Shown here piece after piece: positions 9,495 through 37,432 of a stretch of DNA of 64,000 nt. Every line of letters starts with the position of its first letter. Position 1 is the first letter of the stretch. A program made the position numbers and the translations under genes. Origin of the DNA: Thermoproteota archaeon (GTDB taxonomy: Archaea > Thermoproteota > Thermoprotei_A > EX4484-217-1 > JAPDJV01); the NCBI GenBank assembly GCA_029258925.1, contig JAPDJV010000001.1, forward strand, positions 9,885-73,884, read 5' to 3'. A model generated the notes under the pieces. It made no database searches. It saw nothing but the letters and a program-made list of their open reading frames with translations, and was not told where the DNA came from.

Positions 9495-10441
9495 ATGAAA
9501 GCTGTTAAACAGAGAGCTAAGAGTGTTTCCAAACACCCTATCCCTGCTCGTAGATAACTGGCCAACACGCTTGTTAGGCTTGAAACAGAGTCGCATGGAG
9601 GTAAAGAGGTTTGGGCAAAGCTGGAATGCTATAATCCATTTAGTAAGAGCATAAAAGGATAGAGCAGTATGGGGTATGGTATTGAAGATGTTGGAGAAGA
9701 GGAGTCTAACAGAGGTCGTTATGGAGGCTACCTCAGGAAATGTGGGATTATCTCTTTTAAGCATTTGTAACATTCTAGGATTAAAATTCACTGCATTCAT
9801 TTTCTCGACAACTCCTCAAGCAACTGAGACACTCTTGAAGACTTTCGGAGCAAATGTTATCAGAACAAACTATGAAACAATAAACCAGGAGTTCTGGAGA
9901 GAGGTCCAAGAGTATGCCGAGAGTACTGGTGCCATCAATTTAAATCAATTCGAAAACGATGCAAACTTCGAAATCCACTACAATACTACAGCAGTGGAAA
10001 TATTGAAACAGTTGGAATCCATAGGTAGGAAACCGGACTATGTTTTTGCTGGAATAGGAACATCAGGGCATATAGCAGCTATTACTAAGAGAATTAGAGA
10101 GCGCTATGGTGGGAATGTGAGAGTTATAGGTGTTCAACCAGCTAGAGGATGCTCTATTCCTGGAATCAAGAGGGTTGAAACTAAGCCTAAGTGGATAAGG
10201 TGTGTGAGCGTAGATGAAGTGGTTGATGTAAGTAGAGCCGAAGCCATTGAGGGTACCATAGATTTGGCTATTAGGGAGGGTATATGTTGGTTTGAGCTCT
10301 GGAGCAGTCTATTCAGCCTACAAGAAGAAAGCCGGTATTAGGGGAACCTGTGTTCTAGTGTTTCCAGATGATGCTTTCAAATACGTTGAAGTATTCGAGG
10401 AATACTTGGCTCTTTCCAGACACCGCTTAGGTTTCAAGTGA
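9495..10441 (+). pseudogene. cysteine synthase / O-acetylserine (O-phosphoserine) sulfhydrylase family (PALP) pseudogene with three lesions
   Basis: Three frames give LANTLVRLETESHGGKEVWAKLECYNPFSKSIK / DRAVWGMV..TSGNVGLSL.. / IVGLSSGAVYSAYKKKAGIRGTCVLVFPDDAFKYVE, all cysteine-synthase hallmarks; in-frame TAA at 9555, +1 shift near 9655, +1 shift near 10285. Confidence 0.6.
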
Positions 10442-27404: not shown

Positions 27405-29327
27405 TTGTTGAGTCTATTTGAAGTATTTGACACTTTATATAGAGAGTTCTCTAAGAGAAGAGCATTCGAGTATTTAAAGACTTTGACGTCTAAGCATCGG
27501 ATACAGGGCTCTAAAGGAATAGTTGATGCTTGCGGATATGTTTCAAGAATGTTGGAGGATGGCGGAGTAGACGTGGAACTTAAAACATACGAGCATCCGG
27601 GTACGATAGGGCTTTTCGAGTACCCTGTGGGGTGGAATGTTTACGATGCTGAAGTGTGGCTTGAAAAACCTGAGAAGAAGCTTTTACACAGATTTATCGA
27701 TAACCCAACCTTAGTATCAGCCCACTCTCCGCCCTCAAATGGATGGATTGAAGGCGAAGTAGTGTATGTTGAGAGAGGTGAGGCTTCGGGAGACTATGAG
27801 GGAAAGAACGTTGAGGGAAAGATAATACTAGCTCACGGTGACTCCTATCTAGTTTGGAAGCAGGCTGAGAGACGGGGCGTGAAGTGTGTTTTAGTTTACA
27901 GGGATACGGGTGGACCAGACCATGCGGTACCATATACAGGCCTATTCTTGACGCTGGAGGAAGCTGCGAAAGCCAAATGCCCCGTTCTAAACGTGTCCAG
28001 ATCGACTGCACATAAAATTCTAAGATTACTAAGATCCGGGAAGAAACCCGTTATTAGGGTACGTGTTGATGCAGAATATGATTTCAACCCTGTTTTCCCA
28101 GTAGTAAAAGCAACTATTCGAGGATTTGAGGGAGGGAGAAGCGTAATCTTAATAGCACATATATGTCATCCAATGCCCGGTGCAAACGACAATGCTAGCG
28201 GAAGCGTGGCATTGCTGGAGCTAGCATTGACTTTAAACAAGCTCATAAGGGAAGGCATACTGGAGAGACCAAGATACGACATAGTGTTCCTATGGGTTCC
28301 AGAGTATTCTGGAACACTCCTATATGTTTCACGTGAAAAAGTGACCCCGGACAACGTTATCAGCGTTATAAACTTGGACATGGTTGGTGAGAGACAGGAG
28401 AAAACCGGCTCAACAGCAATATTAATAGAGACTCCACTCTATATGAGGGGGATTGTCGACGCGTTAATGGAGCAAACTTTCAATATGGCCTTTCATGCAT
28501 CCAAGGGTTTCGGCGAAGTCTCGAATCTACCCGATAGAAAAGTAGGTTTCTCGTCATATGATGCTGGGAGCGACCACGATATTTTCATAAGCATTAATAT
28601 ACCAGGCGTGATGTTAAACCAGTGGCCAGACCAATACTATCATACAGATCTAGATGACTTAGATAAAGTGGATGTTGAAAATATTAAAAGAAGTGCTGTA
28701 GCAGCCGGTTCGACGGCATATTACATTGCCCTAGGTTCAAAGGATGCTGCCCTGAAAATACTCGGACTCCTCACACTACACTTCTGCAAACTTATATCAA
28801 ACATGTTTTCCGAGATTCTAGTTAAATCTAAAGATGACCCCCGATGGAAGAGGATAGCTTGTGAAAGATATAATATTGTGAGCGCTGCTATTAAGAGGAA
28901 CTATGAGATTCTGGGAAAAATTTACCCTGAAATAATTGACTTAACTCGAACACATTTAGACAAGGCTCTAGCACAGCTTAAAGTCTACTACGATATCATG
29001 GATATTAAAGTGGAGCCCGTGGAAATGGAGGATTGGGAACTCAAGATTTACACTAAAGATTGGATAGGGCCGATTTCCTTGAGAAGACTCTCTAAAATAC
29101 TTGACGAGGAAACATTGTTAAAAATACAGAGGCTCGTAAGGGAGGAAAGAATTTACCGGCCAATACTATTGTACTATCTACCAAATCTGATAGATGGAAG
29201 AAGAAGCGTTGGAGAGATAATACGTGCTATTGAAGCCGAGTATGGTCTCATTAAGGTTGATGTTCTTAAATGGTTCATTGACATTCTCGAGAAACATAGA
29301 CTGATTACAACAATTAATGGAAGCTGA
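27405..29327 (+). CDS. M28-family zinc metallopeptidase (aminopeptidase-like) with PA-type insert
   Basis: 640 aa; HICHPMPGANDNASGSVALLELA and DMVGE metal ligand motifs of peptidase M28. Confidence 0.55.
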   Translation: MLSLFEVFDTLYREFSKRRAFEYLKTLTSKHRIQGSKGIVDACGYVSRMLEDGGVDVELKTYEHPGTIGLFEYPVGWNVYDAEVWLEKPEKKLLHRFIDNPTLVSAHSPPSNGWIEGEVVYVERGEASGDYEGKNVEGKIILAHGDSYLVWKQAERRGVKCVLVYRDTGGPDHAVPYTGLFLTLEEAAKAKCPVLNVSRSTAHKILRLLRSGKKPVIRVRVDAEYDFNPVFPVVKATIRGFEGGRSVILIAHICHPMPGANDNASGSVALLELALTLNKLIREGILERPRYDIVFLWVPEYSGTLLYVSREKVTPDNVISVINLDMVGERQEKTGSTAILIETPLYMRGIVDALMEQTFNMAFHASKGFGEVSNLPDRKVGFSSYDAGSDHDIFISINIPGVMLNQWPDQYYHTDLDDLDKVDVENIKRSAVAAGSTAYYIALGSKDAALKILGLLTLHFCKLISNMFSEILVKSKDDPRWKRIACERYNIVSAAIKRNYEILGKIYPEIIDLTRTHLDKALAQLKVYYDIMDIKVEPVEMEDWELKIYTKDWIGPISLRRLSKILDEETLLKIQRLVREERIYRPILLYYLPNLIDGRRSVGEIIRAIEAEYGLIKVDVLKWFIDILEKHRLITTINGS

Positions 29328-29490: not shown

Positions 29491-29868
29491 GTGAGCTCTA
29501 AGTGCAAGTTAGTAGATGAGTTACTGGAAATATTTAGAAAAATGGGGTTAAGAGTCTTCTTGAATACCAGCATTAAGGGGACTTCAGGTATCAGACACTT
29601 CTTCGACGTGGTAGTTTTTTCAGAGGATGTTAAAAAACCCAAGGTGACGGTGACTATAGTTGAAGCCGGTAATGTAAAGGCCAGTTTACTATTAGAGTTA
29701 ATAGCGAAAGGTGTCGATGTTAAGTGTCCCCACATATTAGTGTTATCGGGTCAAAAAGAGTTTAATGGAATATTTAAACCAATAAACTATACTATTATAG
29801 AGTGCTCAAATGAGAAAGGAAAATTAGAAGTTGATAGGATAAAGAAACTAGTACTTGAAAGAGTGTAA
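29491..29868 (+). CDS. hypothetical protein, possible restriction-endonuclease-like (PD-(D/E)xK / Hjc-like) fold
   Basis: 125 aa; FDVVVF then IVEAGNVK pattern loosely resembling D..E.K. Confidence 0.25.
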   Translation: MSSKCKLVDELLEIFRKMGLRVFLNTSIKGTSGIRHFFDVVVFSEDVKKPKVTVTIVEAGNVKASLLLELIAKGVDVKCPHILVLSGQKEFNGIFKPINYTIIECSNEKGKLEVDRIKKLVLERV

Positions 29869-29940: not shown

Positions 29941-30297
29941 GTGAATAGATTGAGAGAAGAAAGAGTTTTCTTAGTATTGTTTGGCTTATTTTTATCTATT
30001 CTCGGCATTCTCATTATAGCATACTCCTATAATATAGTATCCCTATTGTCTCTGGAATTCGTAATACTTTTAATTATAGGCTCTTCGCTAATAGGCTACG
30101 GCTTCACCTATGGCAAAAAGGACTTGGTATCATATTATGCTATTGGAGCTATTTTAGTTATTCTGGCGTTTACTCTAATATTTTCATCATATCTTGGACC
30201 TTTAGCTGGTCTCGGGGTTTTCTTAATAGGTACGGGCGTTACAAGCATTTTATGGCCGCTCGTAGTGTCCAGGAAAAGAGAGAAGGGAAACGCTTAA
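29941..30297 (+). CDS. small integral membrane protein
   Basis: 118 aa, four hydrophobic segments. Confidence 0.3.
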   Translation: MNRLREERVFLVLFGLFLSILGILIIAYSYNIVSLLSLEFVILLIIGSSLIGYGFTYGKKDLVSYYAIGAILVILAFTLIFSSYLGPLAGLGVFLIGTGVTSILWPLVVSRKREKGNA

Positions 30298-31242
30298 CTA
30301 TTGAACTCTAGCTCCACATATGGGGCAATAATTTGCTCCCTCTGGAACGATATGACCGTTAGGACATTTCTTCAGCTTTTTGCCGCAGAATGGACAGAAG
30401 TTTGCTTCTCTCGGTATTTGTTTACCGCAGTAGGGACAAATTACCTGTTGAACTTGTGGTGGCGGAGCTTGTTGGGGTGGGGGTGTGAATAATGGTGGGA
30501 TTATAGCTATTCCCGCTCCCACTCCGGCACCAGGACTCTTGCCAAGTTCCTTTGCTACCTGTTTCACAGTATCCATCTGCATGACGTATGCTGCCTGACC
30601 TGTCTGTCTTAGCCAGAATATTCTCTGCCTCCACTCATCAGTTGTGTCGACCCCCTCAAACTTTAAGTCGATTAGCTCTAACCCTATTCTCCTAAGGTCT
30701 TCCAATAACAATATTTTTACTTCGCTTGAAACCCTGTCCACGTTCTGAAACACGTCGACTATACTGTATTTACTCAAATGTTTCATTAGGTTCTCGTTAA
30801 AGTATCCTCTTAGAAACTTTGTTACGTCGCTACTCTCGTAAAGTCCTTGACCACCTACGACTTCAACTATGAACAGCCTTGGATCGGAGACTTTAAACCA
30901 ATATGTTCCGTGAAACATTAATGGAGCTAGCTCTCTGGTCTGGGTTCTCCCCCCAAACTTTCCTTGAAACTGTTTTAAGCTTACAAATATTACCGTTGCT
31001 CTAAACGGTATTTTATCGAAACCTGAAATCCTGCTTAAAACCTTTGTTAGTAGAGGTAAATTCAACGTTGTTATCGTATGTCTTCCCGGACCGAAAATAT
31101 CGTATAGTTTTCCGTCTCTCATGAAAACTGCTACTTCGTATTCGTGGACGATTAACTGGCTACCCCATTCTATTTCCTCGCTGGGATACTTCCACACTAT
31201 TTCGTCTTCTCTCGGATTAACCCATTCTATTACTTTGGGCAT
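30298..31242 (-). CDS. SPFH/band-7-like protein (COG4260 / YdjI-like) with Pro/Gln-rich linker and two C-terminal zinc ribbons
   Basis: 314 aa; N-terminal ~230 aa resembles COG4260 SPFH-like proteins; PPPQQAPPPQVQQ linker; CPYCG..CPFCG and CPNGH..CPICG. Confidence 0.5.
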   Translation of the reverse strand: MPKVIEWVNPREDEIVWKYPSEEIEWGSQLIVHEYEVAVFMRDGKLYDIFGPGRHTITTLNLPLLTKVLSRISGFDKIPFRATVIFVSLKQFQGKFGGRTQTRELAPLMFHGTYWFKVSDPRLFIVEVVGGQGLYESSDVTKFLRGYFNENLMKHLSKYSIVDVFQNVDRVSSEVKILLLEDLRRIGLELIDLKFEGVDTTDEWRQRIFWLRQTGQAAYVMQMDTVKQVAKELGKSPGAGVGAGIAIIPPLFTPPPQQAPPPQVQQVICPYCGKQIPREANFCPFCGKKLKKCPNGHIVPEGANYCPICGARVQ

Positions 31243-31252
31243 GCTTTTAACC

Positions 31253-31747
31253 TCATTCAGCTACCTTAAATAATCTATCCCTCTCTCGTATAAGACTATC
31301 TATCCTCTCAAGACGCTCCGTGATTGAGGTAAGCTTCCTTTTCAATAAGTCGGTGTCGCTCATAGATCCTCTCAACTCTTCCATCAAGTTCATGATTTCA
31401 CTTGCATCTTTAATCAGATTGTAGTCGTACTCCAGAATCTTCTTTAACTCCTCCTCCCTGATCTTAACCCTATCATAGTATCCGGAGTAACCATGTGGTG
31501 CATGTTTGACCATGCTTATAACCATCATTAGTTTCTTCCTAGTCTTATCCATTAATTCCATTACTTCAAAATTGCCTGTCGCCGCCGGCATAATTCTTTC
31601 TAGAGATCTCTTAGAGTCTTCTAGTATAGATGCTACCTTCTCTCTCACCAATCTATCATCTTCTCTCAACAGCTCTTTTCTCTTGTAGCCTCTGAACCCG
31701 GGTATTATTGTCTCAAGTTTTTCCAGAAAACGAAGTTCTCTACTCAA
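31253..31747 (-). CDS. coiled-coil protein, uncharacterised
   Basis: 164 aa, charged heptad-rich (EELKKILE, LERIDSLIRERDRL); 10-nt gap to downstream gene. Confidence 0.4.
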   Translation of the reverse strand: MSRELRFLEKLETIIPGFRGYKRKELLREDDRLVREKVASILEDSKRSLERIMPAATGNFEVMELMDKTRKKLMMVISMVKHAPHGYSGYYDRVKIREEELKKILEYDYNLIKDASEIMNLMEELRGSMSDTDLLKRKLTSITERLERIDSLIRERDRLFKVAE

Positions 31748-31758
31748 CTTGATACACC

Positions 31759-32748
31759 TTAAATTCCAATTCTAAAGAATATCTTGCTGGTTTTTAAAAT
31801 CTTTGTAAAGCCTGCGGGTACGGTCCCCCCTAACTCTCTTACCTGAGACGCCTTAACCTTCACTTCTACGCTTCTAATAAGTGGTTGAATTGCTCCAGCG
31901 AAGCCTGCTGCAATCCCTCCAACTATCCCCAAGATAGAGTGAAAAATTATTGAAGTAAATCCTCCTACTACCAGACCCGCAGTAATTAGTCCAATACCTA
32001 TCGCGATCTGTGTTGCTCTAATAGCAACCGTTATTGGGTGCTCTACTAAAATTATTCTACCATCAGCACCATCGATCCAGCCCTCATATGTTTCCCCCTT
32101 GTAAGTATATGCTAGCTCCCATACGGGATAGTGGACTAGACCCCTATATTCCACATTCTTCGACTCCTCCTGAAGGTCACTAATACTACTACAAGACTTT
32201 CTGGCTTCATCAAGTAGGGCTGAGGTTAAAAAGAATTCCGCTTTCTTCTTAGCCTCCTCCGCGTCAAATAAGGGTTCGTGGAATACTCCAGCTCTCTTAA
32301 CATCTTCTTCGAAGAATCTTTTACCTCTTATTGGGAAAGGATAGTCCTCTAATAGTAATCCAAGCTTTCCGCCTATGGCTGGTATTCCCAAATACTTCAC
32401 TACCTCGACTCTCGTTCTCCTATTAGATAAAAATGGTTTAACGATTGCCGACCCATGTAAGTAGAAGAAGTATACTGGAACGTAATGCAGTACTCTTTTC
32501 GTAAGGCTTGAAGCCGATGCTATGTCTGCTGGAGACCCGTATTGTCTTGAAACAAATTTGAGTAGAAGCTCGTAAGGGTCTCTTTCGTCGAGGGGGAAAT
32601 AGTAGTGGTCTACTTTAGAAACCTCGTATTTACCTTCCTCCCCAATGTGGAATACTAGGCCGCAATAGGGGCATGTAACCGTCTTAACAGTATCGGGTAC
32701 TGTGAATACTGCGCTACAGTGTGGACATGTCACCTCCACAGCGTTCAC
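31759..32748 (-). CDS. zinc-ribbon membrane protein (YdjG/YdjH-like?), paralog 2
   Basis: 329 aa; N-terminal CPHC..CPYCG double ribbon, C-terminal Gly-rich TM helices. Confidence 0.4.
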   Translation of the reverse strand: MNAVEVTCPHCSAVFTVPDTVKTVTCPYCGLVFHIGEEGKYEVSKVDHYYFPLDERDPYELLLKFVSRQYGSPADIASASSLTKRVLHYVPVYFFYLHGSAIVKPFLSNRRTRVEVVKYLGIPAIGGKLGLLLEDYPFPIRGKRFFEEDVKRAGVFHEPLFDAEEAKKKAEFFLTSALLDEARKSCSSISDLQEESKNVEYRGLVHYPVWELAYTYKGETYEGWIDGADGRIILVEHPITVAIRATQIAIGIGLITAGLVVGGFTSIIFHSILGIVGGIAAGFAGAIQPLIRSVEVKVKASQVRELGGTVPAGFTKILKTSKIFFRIGI

Positions 32749-33680
32749 CTCTCGATTCTAACTCCTGAAACTAGTCTTCCCCCAAAAAACAGTGATATAA
32801 GTGCTCCCATAACTATTAGAGCTATGCCAAAGTCTGTGGGGAAAGCTGAACTAAATGAGGCCAATAATACTCCTCCAAGGGCGCCCATAAGATAACCTGT
32901 TCTTCTCAGGAGAGTGACGGGTTCTGTTGCAACAGTTCTTCTTGCATCCCAGCCCGAGAAAACCATTCTGAAGATAGCTTTCCTACACTTATAGTATACT
33001 GTCCATATGGGTACGAGTATTAACTTGAGGTTTTCAGGGTCACTTGGATCGCAGTAGTAGAAGTCTATTCCATCAGAAATACTCTCATAATGTCTTCTCA
33101 CACTATCACAGGCTTCATCCCTGATCTTGGTTGATGCATCAACTCTATCCATTTCCGTATTTAATATAGGCAGCTTTATCTTCCCCCATTCCTCTTCGCC
33201 TAGATCCACTAGTTTTTCTTGAGGCGGTGTATCTACTCCTATTTTTTCAATAACGTTTCTAACTCCAAACTCCACTACTTGCCTTCTTGCTGGAAGCCTG
33301 ACTAGGACACTCTTATCGAAACGATCTCTATAGGTTCTTTTAACTCTTCTTTTATCCCTAATTTCATACTTATGATATTCGACCATACCCTTAACTCTAA
33401 CATTGCCCACCCATACTGGAACATATTCTCCCTCTACGTCGTAAACCTCTATTTCCCCCTTCATCTTCCTTAGATCAAAATCCCTTTCCACAGCCTTCCA
33501 GAATGAGCTGATTATAGACTCTCTGTCAGTAGATTTAATTAAGTATATGTCATCTATGGACACGACGCCACTAATTACATTGGGATATCCGCAGTAATCA
33601 CATATGGCTATAATAGTTTCCGGAGTGGCTGGTAGTGGTGCACCACACCTACCACACTTGAATTCTTGGCTCGCGGCCAA
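32745..33680 (-). CDS. zinc-ribbon membrane protein, paralog 1
   Basis: 311 aa; CGRCG..CDYCG ribbon, two C-terminal TM helices; 4-nt overlap with downstream paralog. Confidence 0.4.
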   Translation of the reverse strand: MAASQEFKCGRCGAPLPATPETIIAICDYCGYPNVISGVVSIDDIYLIKSTDRESIISSFWKAVERDFDLRKMKGEIEVYDVEGEYVPVWVGNVRVKGMVEYHKYEIRDKRRVKRTYRDRFDKSVLVRLPARRQVVEFGVRNVIEKIGVDTPPQEKLVDLGEEEWGKIKLPILNTEMDRVDASTKIRDEACDSVRRHYESISDGIDFYYCDPSDPENLKLILVPIWTVYYKCRKAIFRMVFSGWDARRTVATEPVTLLRRTGYLMGALGGVLLASFSSAFPTDFGIALIVMGALISLFFGGRLVSGVRIER

Positions 33681-33850
33681 AATGCGACACCGTGCCTTTA
33701 TGTGTGGTTATGTAAATGGTTATCCTAGAATAAAAGCATTTTTTATTCAACTATCTTTGAGAAGGCGTCCTACCTATGGAAGCGATGATTTCGGTTTATA
33801 TACTATATTTTAGTATTTCATTTGAGGAACCTTGTTGCGATGTACTGCTC

Positions 33851-34123
33851 TTAGGATATGGCGGCAAGTATTATCGCCAGCGTTAGGAGACCCCAGCCTA
33901 TTATTAACAGTACCTTCAAAAACTTCTTCAGTCCTTCGAATAGAGTCATTATGATGTATATAGCTGTTATGTTAATTAGAATACTTATGGCCTCCGAGAA
34001 CTCTCTAGCCACACTAGGATTTTCCTTAAATATTGTTGATTCGAGCATGTATCTTAACAGTAATGAGAGCCAGTTATATAACATTAGGAGGGCTTGAGCT
34101 GCAAGCATTAACACGTTTGACAT
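33851..34123 (-). CDS. small membrane protein
   Basis: 90 aa, three hydrophobic helices. Confidence 0.25.
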   Translation of the reverse strand: MSNVLMLAAQALLMLYNWLSLLLRYMLESTIFKENPSVAREFSEAISILINITAIYIIMTLFEGLKKFLKVLLIIGWGLLTLAIILAAIS

Positions 34124-34705: not shown

Positions 34706-35467
34706 TTGAGAGGGAGAAGTTTGGGGGAAGAGGACAGGATTATCGTATGTAGACCTTCCCATACATTGATGATTATAGTTCTTCTAATAATAGGTTCAAT
34801 AGTTGTATTCTTCGGCTTACTGATGTGGAGCGCTTTTGCCATATTATTATCTACTATTGGATGGGATATTTACACAGGTATAATAGTCGGATTCACCATA
34901 GTATATTTATCCCTTCTCTTGAGTCCTGTAAACATTCCCCTGGTAAAAGTTGAGAGAAGGATTCTGATACCTTCAGTTGACTTCGTTGTAGTCTTCGGAA
35001 TACCCTACCCTATTCCAAGACTCAAGGAGTCTATTAGGAGGATGATAATAGCTGTGAACCTTGGAGGAGCAGTAATCCCAGTAATAATATCTATATATCT
35101 TATTCACAAAATGCTCTTATTCAATATTCCTCTAATAACGATACTCGCAGGAATCACCATAGTTTCCCTAATAACATTTGCTGTTTCAAGAGTTGTACCG
35201 GGAGTTGGAATAGTAACACCTGCACTAATACCTCCGCTAACATCTGCAGTAGTATCCATATTATTATCTGGAGGCGGCTTGCCTTCAATACCGCTATCGT
35301 ACGTCTCAGGGTGTCTGGGAACACTTATTGGAGCTGACGTGTTAAGATTTGCCAAAGAGTGGAGGAAGCTTAACGCTCCAATGGTTAGTATTGGCGGTGC
35401 GGGAACTTTTGACGGAATATACTTGACCGGAATTCTATCAGTTATACTAGTCTTGTTTATACTGTGA
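34706..35467 (+). CDS. polytopic integral membrane protein, uncharacterised
   Basis: 253 aa, about seven hydrophobic segments. Confidence 0.4.
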   Translation: MRGRSLGEEDRIIVCRPSHTLMIIVLLIIGSIVVFFGLLMWSAFAILLSTIGWDIYTGIIVGFTIVYLSLLLSPVNIPLVKVERRILIPSVDFVVVFGIPYPIPRLKESIRRMIIAVNLGGAVIPVIISIYLIHKMLLFNIPLITILAGITIVSLITFAVSRVVPGVGIVTPALIPPLTSAVVSILLSGGGLPSIPLSYVSGCLGTLIGADVLRFAKEWRKLNAPMVSIGGAGTFDGIYLTGILSVILVLFIL

Positions 35468-35718
35468 CTATTTTTAATAGAAAAAGTTAAATAACATACA
35501 TCTTCTACAATTTTGCGAGGGATCGACTTGGCAAAGAACTTGTTTGACGGAGAATCCCTAATAAACAACTATTGTTCTTGTTTCAGCATAGAAGTGTTTA
35601 TTCCATTGAATAGCTTTTCGCGCTCGTAAAAAAGTTCTCTCGAATTCTAGTTTAAGTAGACAGCCCAATGTAGGAGTCTGCATAGAGGACTCTCCAAGCT
35701 ACTCAGAGGTGTTCTTCG

Positions 35719-36654
35719 GTGAACAATAGAGTAAAACACTGTATTTTATGCCTAATTTATTGTAGGATCATGGATTTGATAAGGCTTGGACTAAATAGCG
35801 CTGAGAATGCTTCAGCTATAATGGAGAAAATATCCGAGTTGATGACTGATTCAGATAGAACAGAGTGCTTTGTCGAGACTTTCGAAGAAATAAAGAGGAT
35901 TGCAGGTAAAAGTGATCCCTACGAGGAATTGAAGGAGAAGTTTAATGAGGCAGCTTTCAGATCCTTAGAGCTCATTCGTGAAATAAGGCCGGAGCTGCTT
36001 GCAAAGCCTTCTAGCATACTTAAATTATCTGCGGTTGCAAATATGGCTGATACCCAGGTGCTGGGGTTCAATGGCAGACCTGAACATATGGCTTGCTTGC
36101 TTGAGAACCTTAACGTTGTGGTGGATGAGAGCAGGATTATCGATATGCTTGAGAACAGGAATGTGATGATCATTCTAGATAATGCTGGGGAAGCAGTATT
36201 TGATATAGAATTGGCTAAACGGCTGAGTATTATGGGAAACGATGTTACGATAGTTGCTAGACACTATTCATATGAAATAGACGTAACATTTGATGAAGTA
36301 TCTCGCTTACTCAGCGGCTACGGATTAAAGGTTCTATCAACAATGTCTTCCTACCCATTCTTCTACCCGAAAAACATACCTGAAAAACTTCTAAGTGAAG
36401 CCAGGAGATCCGATATTGTAATATCTAAAGGCATCGCAAACCTGGAGGCATACATAGACTACCACGAATATTATAGTGATATTAACGTGGTCTTCGCATT
36501 CAATGTAAAGTGCGATGTACTATCAGACCTCGTGGGGGTGAGGAAAGGTAGTTCTCTAGTAATAACTGGGGACAGACTTCTCGAAAGAGTCAGGAAAAAT
36601 ATTAGAGAGAATCCGAGACTTAGAGGATTTATAAGGGTAAAACAATCTATGTGA
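35719..36654 (+). CDS. DUF89/ARMT1-like damage-control phosphatase family protein
   Basis: DNAGEAVFD and KGIANLE motifs match the DUF89 metal site; real start probably Met at MDLIRLG. Confidence 0.5.
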   Translation: MNNRVKHCILCLIYCRIMDLIRLGLNSAENASAIMEKISELMTDSDRTECFVETFEEIKRIAGKSDPYEELKEKFNEAAFRSLELIREIRPELLAKPSSILKLSAVANMADTQVLGFNGRPEHMACLLENLNVVVDESRIIDMLENRNVMIILDNAGEAVFDIELAKRLSIMGNDVTIVARHYSYEIDVTFDEVSRLLSGYGLKVLSTMSSYPFFYPKNIPEKLLSEARRSDIVISKGIANLEAYIDYHEYYSDINVVFAFNVKCDVLSDLVGVRKGSSLVITGDRLLERVRKNIRENPRLRGFIRVKQSM

Positions 36655-36820
36655 GATCTGAGAGTGCTGATCGGTTAGCTCGGTTAACGCGTTTTGATTT
36701 TCCGCTAAGTATGATACTTTGCAATAGGGGATGTTAAATGGAGACTACAACGTGAAGCACGTCCAAATTGTTTCCCGGGATCAAAGGAGTTTGAGGCTTT
36801 TAGAATAGACTATGGTTTCC

Positions 36821-37432
36821 TCAAGTCGCACCCAAGGAATTTATGTATTCCAAGCTAGTCCATGTGGCTTCCTCTTCCCTCTTAGACCATAGCTCCTCCA
36901 AAACTGATGTTAATCCCTCTAGGGGAGTGCGTCCTTCTTCGAGTATTTTCCTCAAAAGCATTGAATAATGTTCTTTTAATTCCCAGAAGAAGTGTTTGAC
37001 CAATTTGATGGGAACCTTAATTCTTTCCCCTTTACCGACACCTGGACACTTTAAATCTAAATGGAGGGAATTAACTGAGGGAGAGATTACTTCGAGAGGG
37101 TATAGGCGACATCTTAGTGGTCTAGCTGGATAAATGCTACACTCTATAATTCCATCTCCTTCATTAATAAATATGCATGAGTCTCCGCGGCTTTTAAGGG
37201 ATAAAAATGGTATTACGTCTGCTATTATTGGTTTAACATAGTCATATAGGAAGCCAAGCCAGTGGATGTTCAAGTACTTGGACATCCTTATGACATCAAA
37301 TACTGTTAACACTACATTTGGGCCTGTGGTGCAGCACAAGCCACATCTCAGACACTTGAATTCGAATCCTCCATGTAAATCCACCGTTAAGTGACTACAC
37401 AATTCACACACCTTTTCGTAAATAGCCAACAC
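36821..37432 (-). CDS. YkgJ-family CxxCxxCC cysteine-cluster protein (putative Zn/Fe-S)
   Basis: 203 aa; CLRCGLCC motif plus an additional downstream Cys. Confidence 0.5.
   Translation of the reverse strand: MLAIYEKVCELCSHLTVDLHGGFEFKCLRCGLCCTTGPNVVLTVFDVIRMSKYLNIHWLGFLYDYVKPIIADVIPFLSLKSRGDSCIFINEGDGIIECSIYPARPLRCRLYPLEVISPSVNSLHLDLKCPGVGKGERIKVPIKLVKHFFWELKEHYSMLLRKILEEGRTPLEGLTSVLEELWSKREEEATWTSLEYINSLGAT

Follow-up and report, generated by a model that had tools for sequence, protein, structure and literature searches.

Proteins of the SPFH type occur in every domain of life, and their function is largely set by their partners. The YdjI/SamI subfamily of these proteins has so far been studied only in Bacillus subtilis. 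In YdjI, which is soluble, the SPFH domain is joined to a zinc finger by a low-complexity linker; the protein is anchored at the membrane by YdjG and YdjH, and it recruits PspA (PMC8581546; bioRxiv 10.64898/2026.02.06.704340). Loss of SamI leads to constitutive stress signalling that depends on SamG and SamH, and PspA is dispensable for this phenotype (bioRxiv 10.64898/2026.02.06.704340). YdjG has been described as a protein with two zinc ribbons, a YpeB-related domain, for which an NTF2-like fold was proposed, and a transmembrane (TM) segment (Ravi et al. 2024, PMC11237479). Here we describe a related locus in a Thermoproteota archaeon (GCA_029258925.1, contig JAPDJV010000001.1). It was found in a stretch of 64,000 nucleotides (nt; positions 9,885 to 73,884 of the contig), hereafter called the window, where four genes named D, C, B and A occupy positions 30298 to 33680. 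We interpret this locus as an archaeal SPFH membrane module of the SamG/SamI (YdjG/YdjI) type, in which B is the dedicated partner of the SPFH scaffold and which has a role in membrane stress; the probability that we attach to this reading is roughly 0.55. The module as such is real and widely conserved in archaea, and it lacks genes for PspA and YdjH. An earlier note, made from the DNA sequence of the window, had stated that it knew of no characterised archaeal counterpart, and literature searches indeed found no description of this archaeal module.

All four open reading frames (ORFs) were confirmed on the minus strand, and the description of four co-directional, tightly packed genes was borne out: the gaps measure 10 nt between A and B and 11 nt between B and C, and there is a 4-nt overlap of C with D. 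The A, B and D proteins are identical to public gene calls, and the public call for C starts three codons later. The features of the locus, including a fifth gene (E) outside the span that was first reported, are as follows (aa, amino acids; AF2, AlphaFold2).

33681..33850, minus strand: intergenic region of 170 nt upstream of D, AT-rich; putative operon promoter region, from sequence inspection only
32745..33680, minus strand: gene D, 311 aa; YdjG/SamG family, distal paralog; ORF with an identical public protein
33591-33656, minus strand: zinc ribbon of D (aa 9-30), CxxC motifs
32769-32903, minus strand: C-terminal hydrophobic hairpin of D (aa ~260-304), from hydropathy
31759..32748, minus strand: gene C, 329 aa (326 aa in public calls); YdjG/SamG family, paralog adjoining B
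32662-32727, minus strand: zinc ribbon of C (aa 8-29)
aa 48-238 of C, minus strand: two alpha/beta domains predicted in the AF2 model
31867-32028, minus strand: TM hairpin of C (aa 241-294) predicted in the AF2 model
aa 312-328 of C, minus strand: C-terminal helix predicted in the AF2 model
31253..31747, minus strand: gene B, 164 aa; soluble, predicted four-helix bundle, family without a Pfam entry
31643-31702, minus strand: loop motif PGFxGYKxKExxRExDxLxR of B (aa 16-35), from alignments
31454-31492, minus strand: loop motif GYxGxFDxxKxxE of B (aa 86-98), from alignments
30298..31242, minus strand: gene A, 314 aa; YdjI/SamI-type SPFH protein, soluble
30619-31197, minus strand: SPFH domain of A (aa 16-208), from Pfam
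30448-30534, minus strand: Gly/Pro/Gln-rich linker of A (aa 237-265)
30304-30447, minus strand: double zinc ribbon of A (aa 266-313), Pfam DZR and Zn_Ribbon_1
29941..30297, plus strand: gene E, 118 aa, about four TM helices; runs convergently to A and borders directly on the A stop codon

Each of the four genes A to D has many homologs, with E-values that reach 1e-90, and their order recurs across unrelated genomic contexts. The genes are therefore not chance ORFs. The nearest relatives of all four proteins were found in uncultured Thermoproteota, Bathyarchaeia and Thermococcus, which supports an archaeal origin of the DNA. Upstream of D, inspection of the sequence revealed putative TATA-like elements, namely TATATAAA at -122 and TTTTATT near -50.

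A matched the Pfam family Band_7_1 (PF13421) over aa 16-208 with 101.4 bits (cutoff 24; E-value 7e-29), and Band_7 (PF01145) with 78.2 bits (E-value 1e-21). For comparisons with YdjI and YdjG we used a B. subtilis-type pspA-ydjGHI locus (L092) recovered from a metagenome, which was found by means of a degenerate pattern derived from a published ydjG cloning primer (PMC8581546). BLASTP aligned A with the YdjI of this locus over the full length, including the zinc ribbon, at an E-value of 2e-22 and 25% identity. The SPFH/band-7 identity that had been proposed for this 314-aa protein is thus upheld by both the Pfam and the YdjI matches. A hydropathy analysis detected no hydrophobic segment in A, which would make it a soluble protein without an intrinsic membrane anchor. 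The earlier note was also right in describing a Pro/Gln linker and further zinc ribbons at the end of the protein: the linker is rich in Gly, Pro and Gln, and it is followed by the DZR domain, whose second zinc knuckle pair reads CxxxH...CxxC. This C-terminal CxxC cluster is retained in 71 of 73 A homologs. A thus has the architecture that was published for YdjI/SamI.

C and D had been described as paralogs, and this view is supported. In a direct pairwise comparison the two sequences match weakly (E-value 2e-6), but the profile of the D lineage matches that of the C lineage at 99.7% with an E-value of 1e-25 over 238 columns. Because the lineage profiles match so much more strongly than the individual sequences, we regard the paralogy as real. 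With hhalign, the profile of the C family matched the Bacillus-type YdjG at 99.6% (E-value 2e-23, 264 columns), and when the two lineages were compared separately, the values were 98.1% for D (E-value 7.6e-14) and 97.8% for C. C and D are therefore homologs of YdjG/SamG. The 'double zinc ribbon' that had been ascribed to both proteins has to be corrected, since each carries a single CxxC-x14-CxxC motif. This motif was found in 89 of the 91 members of the C/D family, and residues C8, C11, C26 and C29 of C are invariant across 32 homologs.

In the AF2 model of C (pLDDT 91, pTM 0.82), the zinc ribbon is followed by two domains of helices plus sheet, and these in turn by the TM hairpin and a terminal helix. 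A fold search with the central domains gave no significant match among the solved structures in the Protein Data Bank (PDB). The C-terminal TM helices reported before were recovered as a hairpin in the model of C and by hydropathy in both proteins. As the loop that joins the two TM helices in the model measures only about 3 residues, nearly the whole protein would reside on one side of the membrane, and the zinc ribbon together with basic residues flanking the TM helices suggests that the bulk of C and D faces the cytoplasm. A marked expansion of this family was seen in the uncultured archaeon isolate B48_G17, where six tandem YdjG-like paralogs of the C/D type precede the B-A pair (locus L040, 42-6599).

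Protein B had been described as a charged coiled-coil protein. This description is not supported by the AF2 model (pLDDT 83.7, pTM 0.81), in which a short helix at the N-terminus leads into four longer ones of 23-33 aa, such that B is predicted to form a compact four-helix bundle rather than an extended coiled coil. Both invariant loops (PGFxGYK... and GYxGxFD) should then sit at the same end of the bundle. B belongs to no Pfam family, and 44 members of its family showed no consistent Pfam match. Nevertheless, the family is large. A profile search among 1.84 billion cluster representatives identified 1821 relatives with E-values of at most 1e-3, nearly all of 155-190 aa, and 553 GTDB species genomes matched a single B-derived peptide pattern taken from a 22-sequence alignment. 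A distant match was obtained to LIMLP_15305_fam of NCBIfam (NF047596), which was matched by 38 of the 44 B-family members (best E-value 7e-19). The B protein of the window matched it over aa 27-160 with an E-value of 4.7e-10 and 39.6 bits, compared with an equivalog cutoff of 210. The matches across the family fall far below this cutoff; B is homologous to the NF047596 family but is not a member of its equivalog. The LIMLP_15305 family itself, defined on a hypothetical protein of Leptospira, is uncharacterised and named by its locus tag.

Comparison of B with the solved structures in PDB gave nothing meaningful, either by sequence or by profile (the latter with E-values up to 10), and the fold of B gave no specific match. 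B is also unrelated to YdjH (0.45% with hhalign), and it differs from the alpha/beta PspAA domain. An N-terminal zinc ribbon is present in some members of the B family, namely in P0060 (258 aa) and P0148 (233 aa) (Zn_Ribbon_1 with an E-value of 1.4e-6 in P0060). Zinc ribbons thus recur on A, on C and D and on some homologs of B, which hints at a role in assembly.

The neighbourhood of these genes was analysed in 91 fetched loci and the window, of which 79 were non-redundant for the adjacency of B and A. In 76 of these 79 loci, B is located directly upstream of a Band_7_1 gene (-50 to +80 nt), and in many of the pairs the stop and start codons overlap. These loci span Thermoproteota, Thermococci, Bathyarchaeia, Nitrososphaera, Methanoperedenaceae, Brockarchaeota and some bacteria. 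Across archaea, as well as in some bacteria, the SPFH scaffold thus has B as its constant partner. The remaining genes are arranged in various ways around this pair. Writing D for either C or D, the order DDBA of the window is shared by Thermococci and some Thermoproteota, EBADD and EBA are found in Ignisphaera and Desulfurococcales, DBAE and DBA in Bathyarchaeia, and BADD in Nitrososphaera, Brockarchaeota and Methanoperedenaceae; two loci have the order BAE and about ten have BA alone. This view of a conserved neighbourhood agrees with the earlier grouping of the four genes into one operon. The C/D-type genes and E vary between lineages. The flanking genes vary between phyla but are common to many Thermococcus genomes.

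To this set we can add four more B-family genes, taken at random from the large search; each of the four is located upstream of a Band_7_1 gene, at a distance of one or two genes. The SPFH genes beside them include variants with a SHOCT tail or without a zinc ribbon. In a metagenome-assembled genome (MAG) of Armatimonadota, for example, an unannotated gene of 139 aa comes after B, and next in line is the gene for a Band_7_1 protein with a SHOCT tail in place of the zinc ribbons (L096, 2801-4855). One of the four loci, the bacterial-type operon L095 (702-4039), encodes a fusion of B with DUF4178, followed by PspA_IM30 and by Band_7_1 with DZR. This was the only context seen in which a B domain neighbours a true PspA, and it connects the B domain with the Psp/SPFH network.

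A different situation was found in Anaerolineae (L043, L053, L063 and L075), where B always follows a gene for an EF-G-like GTPase and the Band_7_1 gene is separated from B or not nearby; in L053 the two are set apart by genes for an SRPBCC protein and a protein of 396 aa. We considered the Anaerolineae neighbours (EF-G-like GTPase, SRPBCC and NACHT-HEAT proteins) as extra partners, but none of them was consistent. Three MAGs labelled Sulfotelmatobacter and Acidoferrum (both Acidobacteriota) and Nanoarchaeia (L062, L076 and L071, respectively) carry the Bathyarchaeia-type arrangement DBA(E), in the case of L062 and L076 together with flanking genes of the Bathyarchaeia type. These contigs may have been mis-binned.

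The fifth gene, E, was detected at the edge of the module. The E protein of the window matched small TM ORFs in loci of Ignisphaera and Desulfurococcales, where they lie directly upstream of B (phmmer E-values of 1.6e-5 to 1e-4). An iterated profile gave 35 matches among 3450 ORFs, all of which directly flank B-A except for one in L057, about 1.1 kb upstream of B. E homologs thus occur at 35 of the 92 loci, in the orders EBA, EBADD, DBAE and BAE. The E homologs in those loci have the same direction as the operon, unlike the convergent E of the window. A profile search of 5.8 billion proteins retrieved 465 homologs, all of them unnamed. Judged by these matches, the module probably has in E a fifth component, which varies between lineages. 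A weak, near full-length match to LiaF-TM (PF22570) was seen in six of the 31 E members, but it remained sub-threshold (best score 19.9 bits, cutoff 27). The E of the window gave no LiaF-TM match in Pfam, and among the best 120 of the 465 homologs none carries this Pfam domain, so that the lead was not reinforced. The possible relation of E to LiaF-TM is thus a lead only.

The observed part of our reading consists of the homologies and domain architectures, together with the predicted topology and the conserved linkage of the genes. From these, the following mechanism can be proposed. C and D would be held in the membrane by their C-terminal TM hairpins, with the zinc ribbon and the alpha/beta domains in the cytoplasm. 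By analogy with SamG and SamH, they, and possibly E as well, would recruit the soluble A to the membrane's inner face, and the SPFH domains of A would oligomerise there. B is probably made together with A, because their stop and start codons overlap or nearly abut in most loci. It would bind A as an adaptor, a cap or a regulator of assembly, using the surface that its conserved Gly/Tyr loops form on one end of the bundle. The resulting complex would most likely serve to sense or maintain the state of the membrane under envelope stress. In this scheme we infer the physical interactions and the role of B, and the physiological function is transferred from experiments in B. subtilis, which is the weakest step.

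Several points weigh against this interpretation. The 80 loci examined are those most similar to the archaeal query and represent a biased sample. B has no informative relative in structure or sequence, and its role is a guess from context. C and D cannot be a universal anchor, because about a quarter of the loci contain B-A with neither C/D nor E nearby. Moreover, the function may not transfer, because two of the four Bacillus components, PspA and YdjH, are absent. Lastly, a 2026 preprint on Bacillus suggests that SamG and SamH signal by themselves and are restrained by SamI (bioRxiv 10.64898/2026.02.06.704340), which would reverse the direction that we assume.

Other explanations therefore have to be weighed against that of a SamG/SamI-type membrane module. 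The earlier note had suggested that B may be the membrane-remodelling partner, which would make it a highly divergent effector of the PspA/ESCRT-III type that is recruited by the SPFH protein, and the locus a complete Psp-like system. Indeed, B adjoins a YdjI-type SPFH gene in a slot like that of pspA in the Bacillus operon, it is all-helical and soluble, the closed core of ESCRT-III is also a four-helix bundle, and PspA was not found in the window or the 91 loci. However, the profile of B matched the Bacillus-type PspA with a probability of 0.13% (hhalign), no PspA, Vipp1, Snf7 or CHMP was retrieved from all PDB sequences at E-values up to 10, and none of the 44 B-family members had a Pfam match to PspA_IM30 or Snf7 at E-values up to 1. 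Furthermore, the modelled helices of 23-33 aa differ from the long hairpin in PspA. In L095, the B domain and a bona fide PspA are encoded by separate neighbouring genes, and the two must therefore be distinct components. On these grounds the suggestion could not be sustained, and we consider such an identity of B unlikely. It is less improbable, but still doubtful, that the module serves mainly in membrane-stress signalling, with C and D (and E) sensing and signalling, and A and B restraining or localising the signal. Such a function would fit the deregulation of SamG/SamH signalling upon loss of SamI (bioRxiv 10.64898/2026.02.06.704340), given that C and D are SamG homologs, and it would fit the recurrence of zinc ribbons in A, in C and D and in some B homologs. 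It is difficult to reconcile with proteins that, judged by an inter-TM loop of about 3 residues, expose almost nothing outside the cell, with the finding that no transcription factor or kinase is conserved beside the module, and with the many loci that have B-A but not C/D.

A function in antiviral defence or abortive infection, or an origin as cargo of a virus or mobile element, was also considered, since the earlier note had mentioned a virus-related module. The membrane proteins with zinc ribbons, the contexts that differ between phyla and one report linking PspA to the regulation of CBASS (PMC11153139) could be taken in its favour. However, searches against PADLOC-DB 2.0 gave matches at chance level only (E-values of 0.01 or more), PHROG matches were confined to zinc-ribbon segments, and B was not found in 2.9 million IMG/VR contigs, 50,697 phage records and 72,556 plasmids. 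Moreover, the flanking genes are of a housekeeping nature (M28 peptidase, ACT/V4R, pyrB/pyrI, purine biosynthesis, lysyl-tRNA-synthetase-like), and the flanks are common to many Thermococcus genomes. The virus-related reading thus found no support, and we regard it as very improbable. SPFH proteins are often paired with proteases, as in HflK/C-FtsH and stomatin-NfeD, and A might in principle regulate a membrane protease, with the product of the M28 peptidase gene about 1 kb away (27405-29327) as its client. This gene, however, lies on the opposite strand with two genes between it and A, it is not found beside the module in the other lineages examined, no protease at all is conserved there, and no NfeD or FtsH gene is linked to the module; this explanation is the least credible of those considered. 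A more far-reaching idea, which we offer tentatively and consider rather improbable, is that B founds a new class of SPFH co-factors, which comprises 1800 sequence clusters or more. B and a YdjI-type SPFH protein would then make up a membrane-associated assembly that has not been seen before, and this pair, not PspA, would be the ancient core that archaea and bacteria have in common. B might in that case provide, in trans, a helical wall or cap, which is missing from the short SPFH subfamily, or it might be a membrane-stabilising effector that acts independently of PspA.

The surroundings of the module in the window are made up of housekeeping genes, namely those for the M28 peptidase, ACT/V4R, pyrB/pyrI, DUF1614 and an ARMT1-like phosphatase. 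Upstream, positions 34706-37432 encode the DUF1614 membrane protein, the ARMT1-like damage-control phosphatase and a protein with a CxxCxxCC zinc/iron-chelating domain, none of which is conserved with the module. Two small flanking ORFs, one of 125 aa (29491-29868, plus strand) and a multi-TM one of 90 aa (33851-34123, minus strand), had no Pfam match and no homolog in the other loci, except for identical copies of the 125-aa ORF on contigs of the same organism (L001 and L002). The M28 peptidase and these two ORFs were considered as members of the module and were rejected because none of them is conserved with it. Scans of the window for tRNA genes and Rfam families were empty, and no shift in base composition was detected at the locus.

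Altogether, these findings show that the pairing of SamG and SamI is conserved from Firmicutes to many archaeal phyla, and that the constant companion of the YdjI-type SPFH protein across archaea and some bacteria is an uncharacterised protein with a predicted four-helix bundle, not PspA. The module provides a system of two to five genes in which to ask how soluble SPFH proteins reach membranes and act there, and it is carried by cultured Thermococcus species; T. guaymasensis and T. gammatolerans are examples of species with the module. In addition, it gives a context to large families that are now labelled 'hypothetical' or 'zinc ribbon domain-containing protein'.

Of the known systems, the pspA-ydjGHI (pspA-samGHI) operon of B. 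subtilis is the closest. Like the genes of the window, it is a compact co-directional operon with the SPFH gene in the last position. YdjI/SamI corresponds to A, and YdjG/SamG corresponds to C and D, with an N-terminal zinc ribbon, a central domain and a C-terminal membrane anchor. The likeness to the YdjG/YdjH/YdjI module that had been suggested before therefore holds for YdjG and YdjI, but not for YdjH. The Bacillus-type YdjH does carry PF04536, whereas no TPM_phosphatase match was found in the four proteins of the window and a phmmer search with YdjH gave no hit; no TPM protein was found in the window and the 91 loci. Likewise, none of the four proteins matched PspA_IM30, and phmmer searches with two PspA sequences against the ORFs of the window and the 91 loci gave no hit at E-values up to 10. 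The two systems also differ in that the window encodes two YdjG paralogs where the Bacillus operon encodes one, and in that C and D have one zinc ribbon and a TM hairpin with a terminal helix (as modelled for C), compared with two ribbons and a single TM helix in YdjG. Furthermore, B is not part of the retrieved Bacillus-type operon, which consists of pspA, ydjG, ydjH and ydjI; the archaeal loci add B and often E.

The PspA/Vipp1/ESCRT-III superfamily resembles B in being soluble, all-helical and encoded together with SPFH proteins, but there is no similarity in sequence or profile and the helices of B are much shorter. E can be compared with LiaI and the LiaI-LiaF-TM domain, a four-TM anchor of the PspA homolog LiaH, as it is likewise small, has about four TM helices and is linked to a module of the Psp-network type. 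Literature searches found no description of the B family and no functional information on COG4260, PF13421 or LIMLP_15305. In methanogens, the 'Meth_adaptin' ESCRT loci (Makarova et al. 2024, PMC10936438) likewise encode, in a conserved membrane-associated cluster, an archaeal SPFH protein that has a coiled coil and a zinc ribbon, but they carry Vps4, ESCRT-III and an adaptin appendage, none of which is present at the locus in the window, and genes of the B or YdjG type were not described there. The nearest systems in the literature are thus the ydj operon of Firmicutes (Ravi et al.) and the zinc-ribbon SPFH protein of the methanogen ESCRT loci (Makarova et al.).

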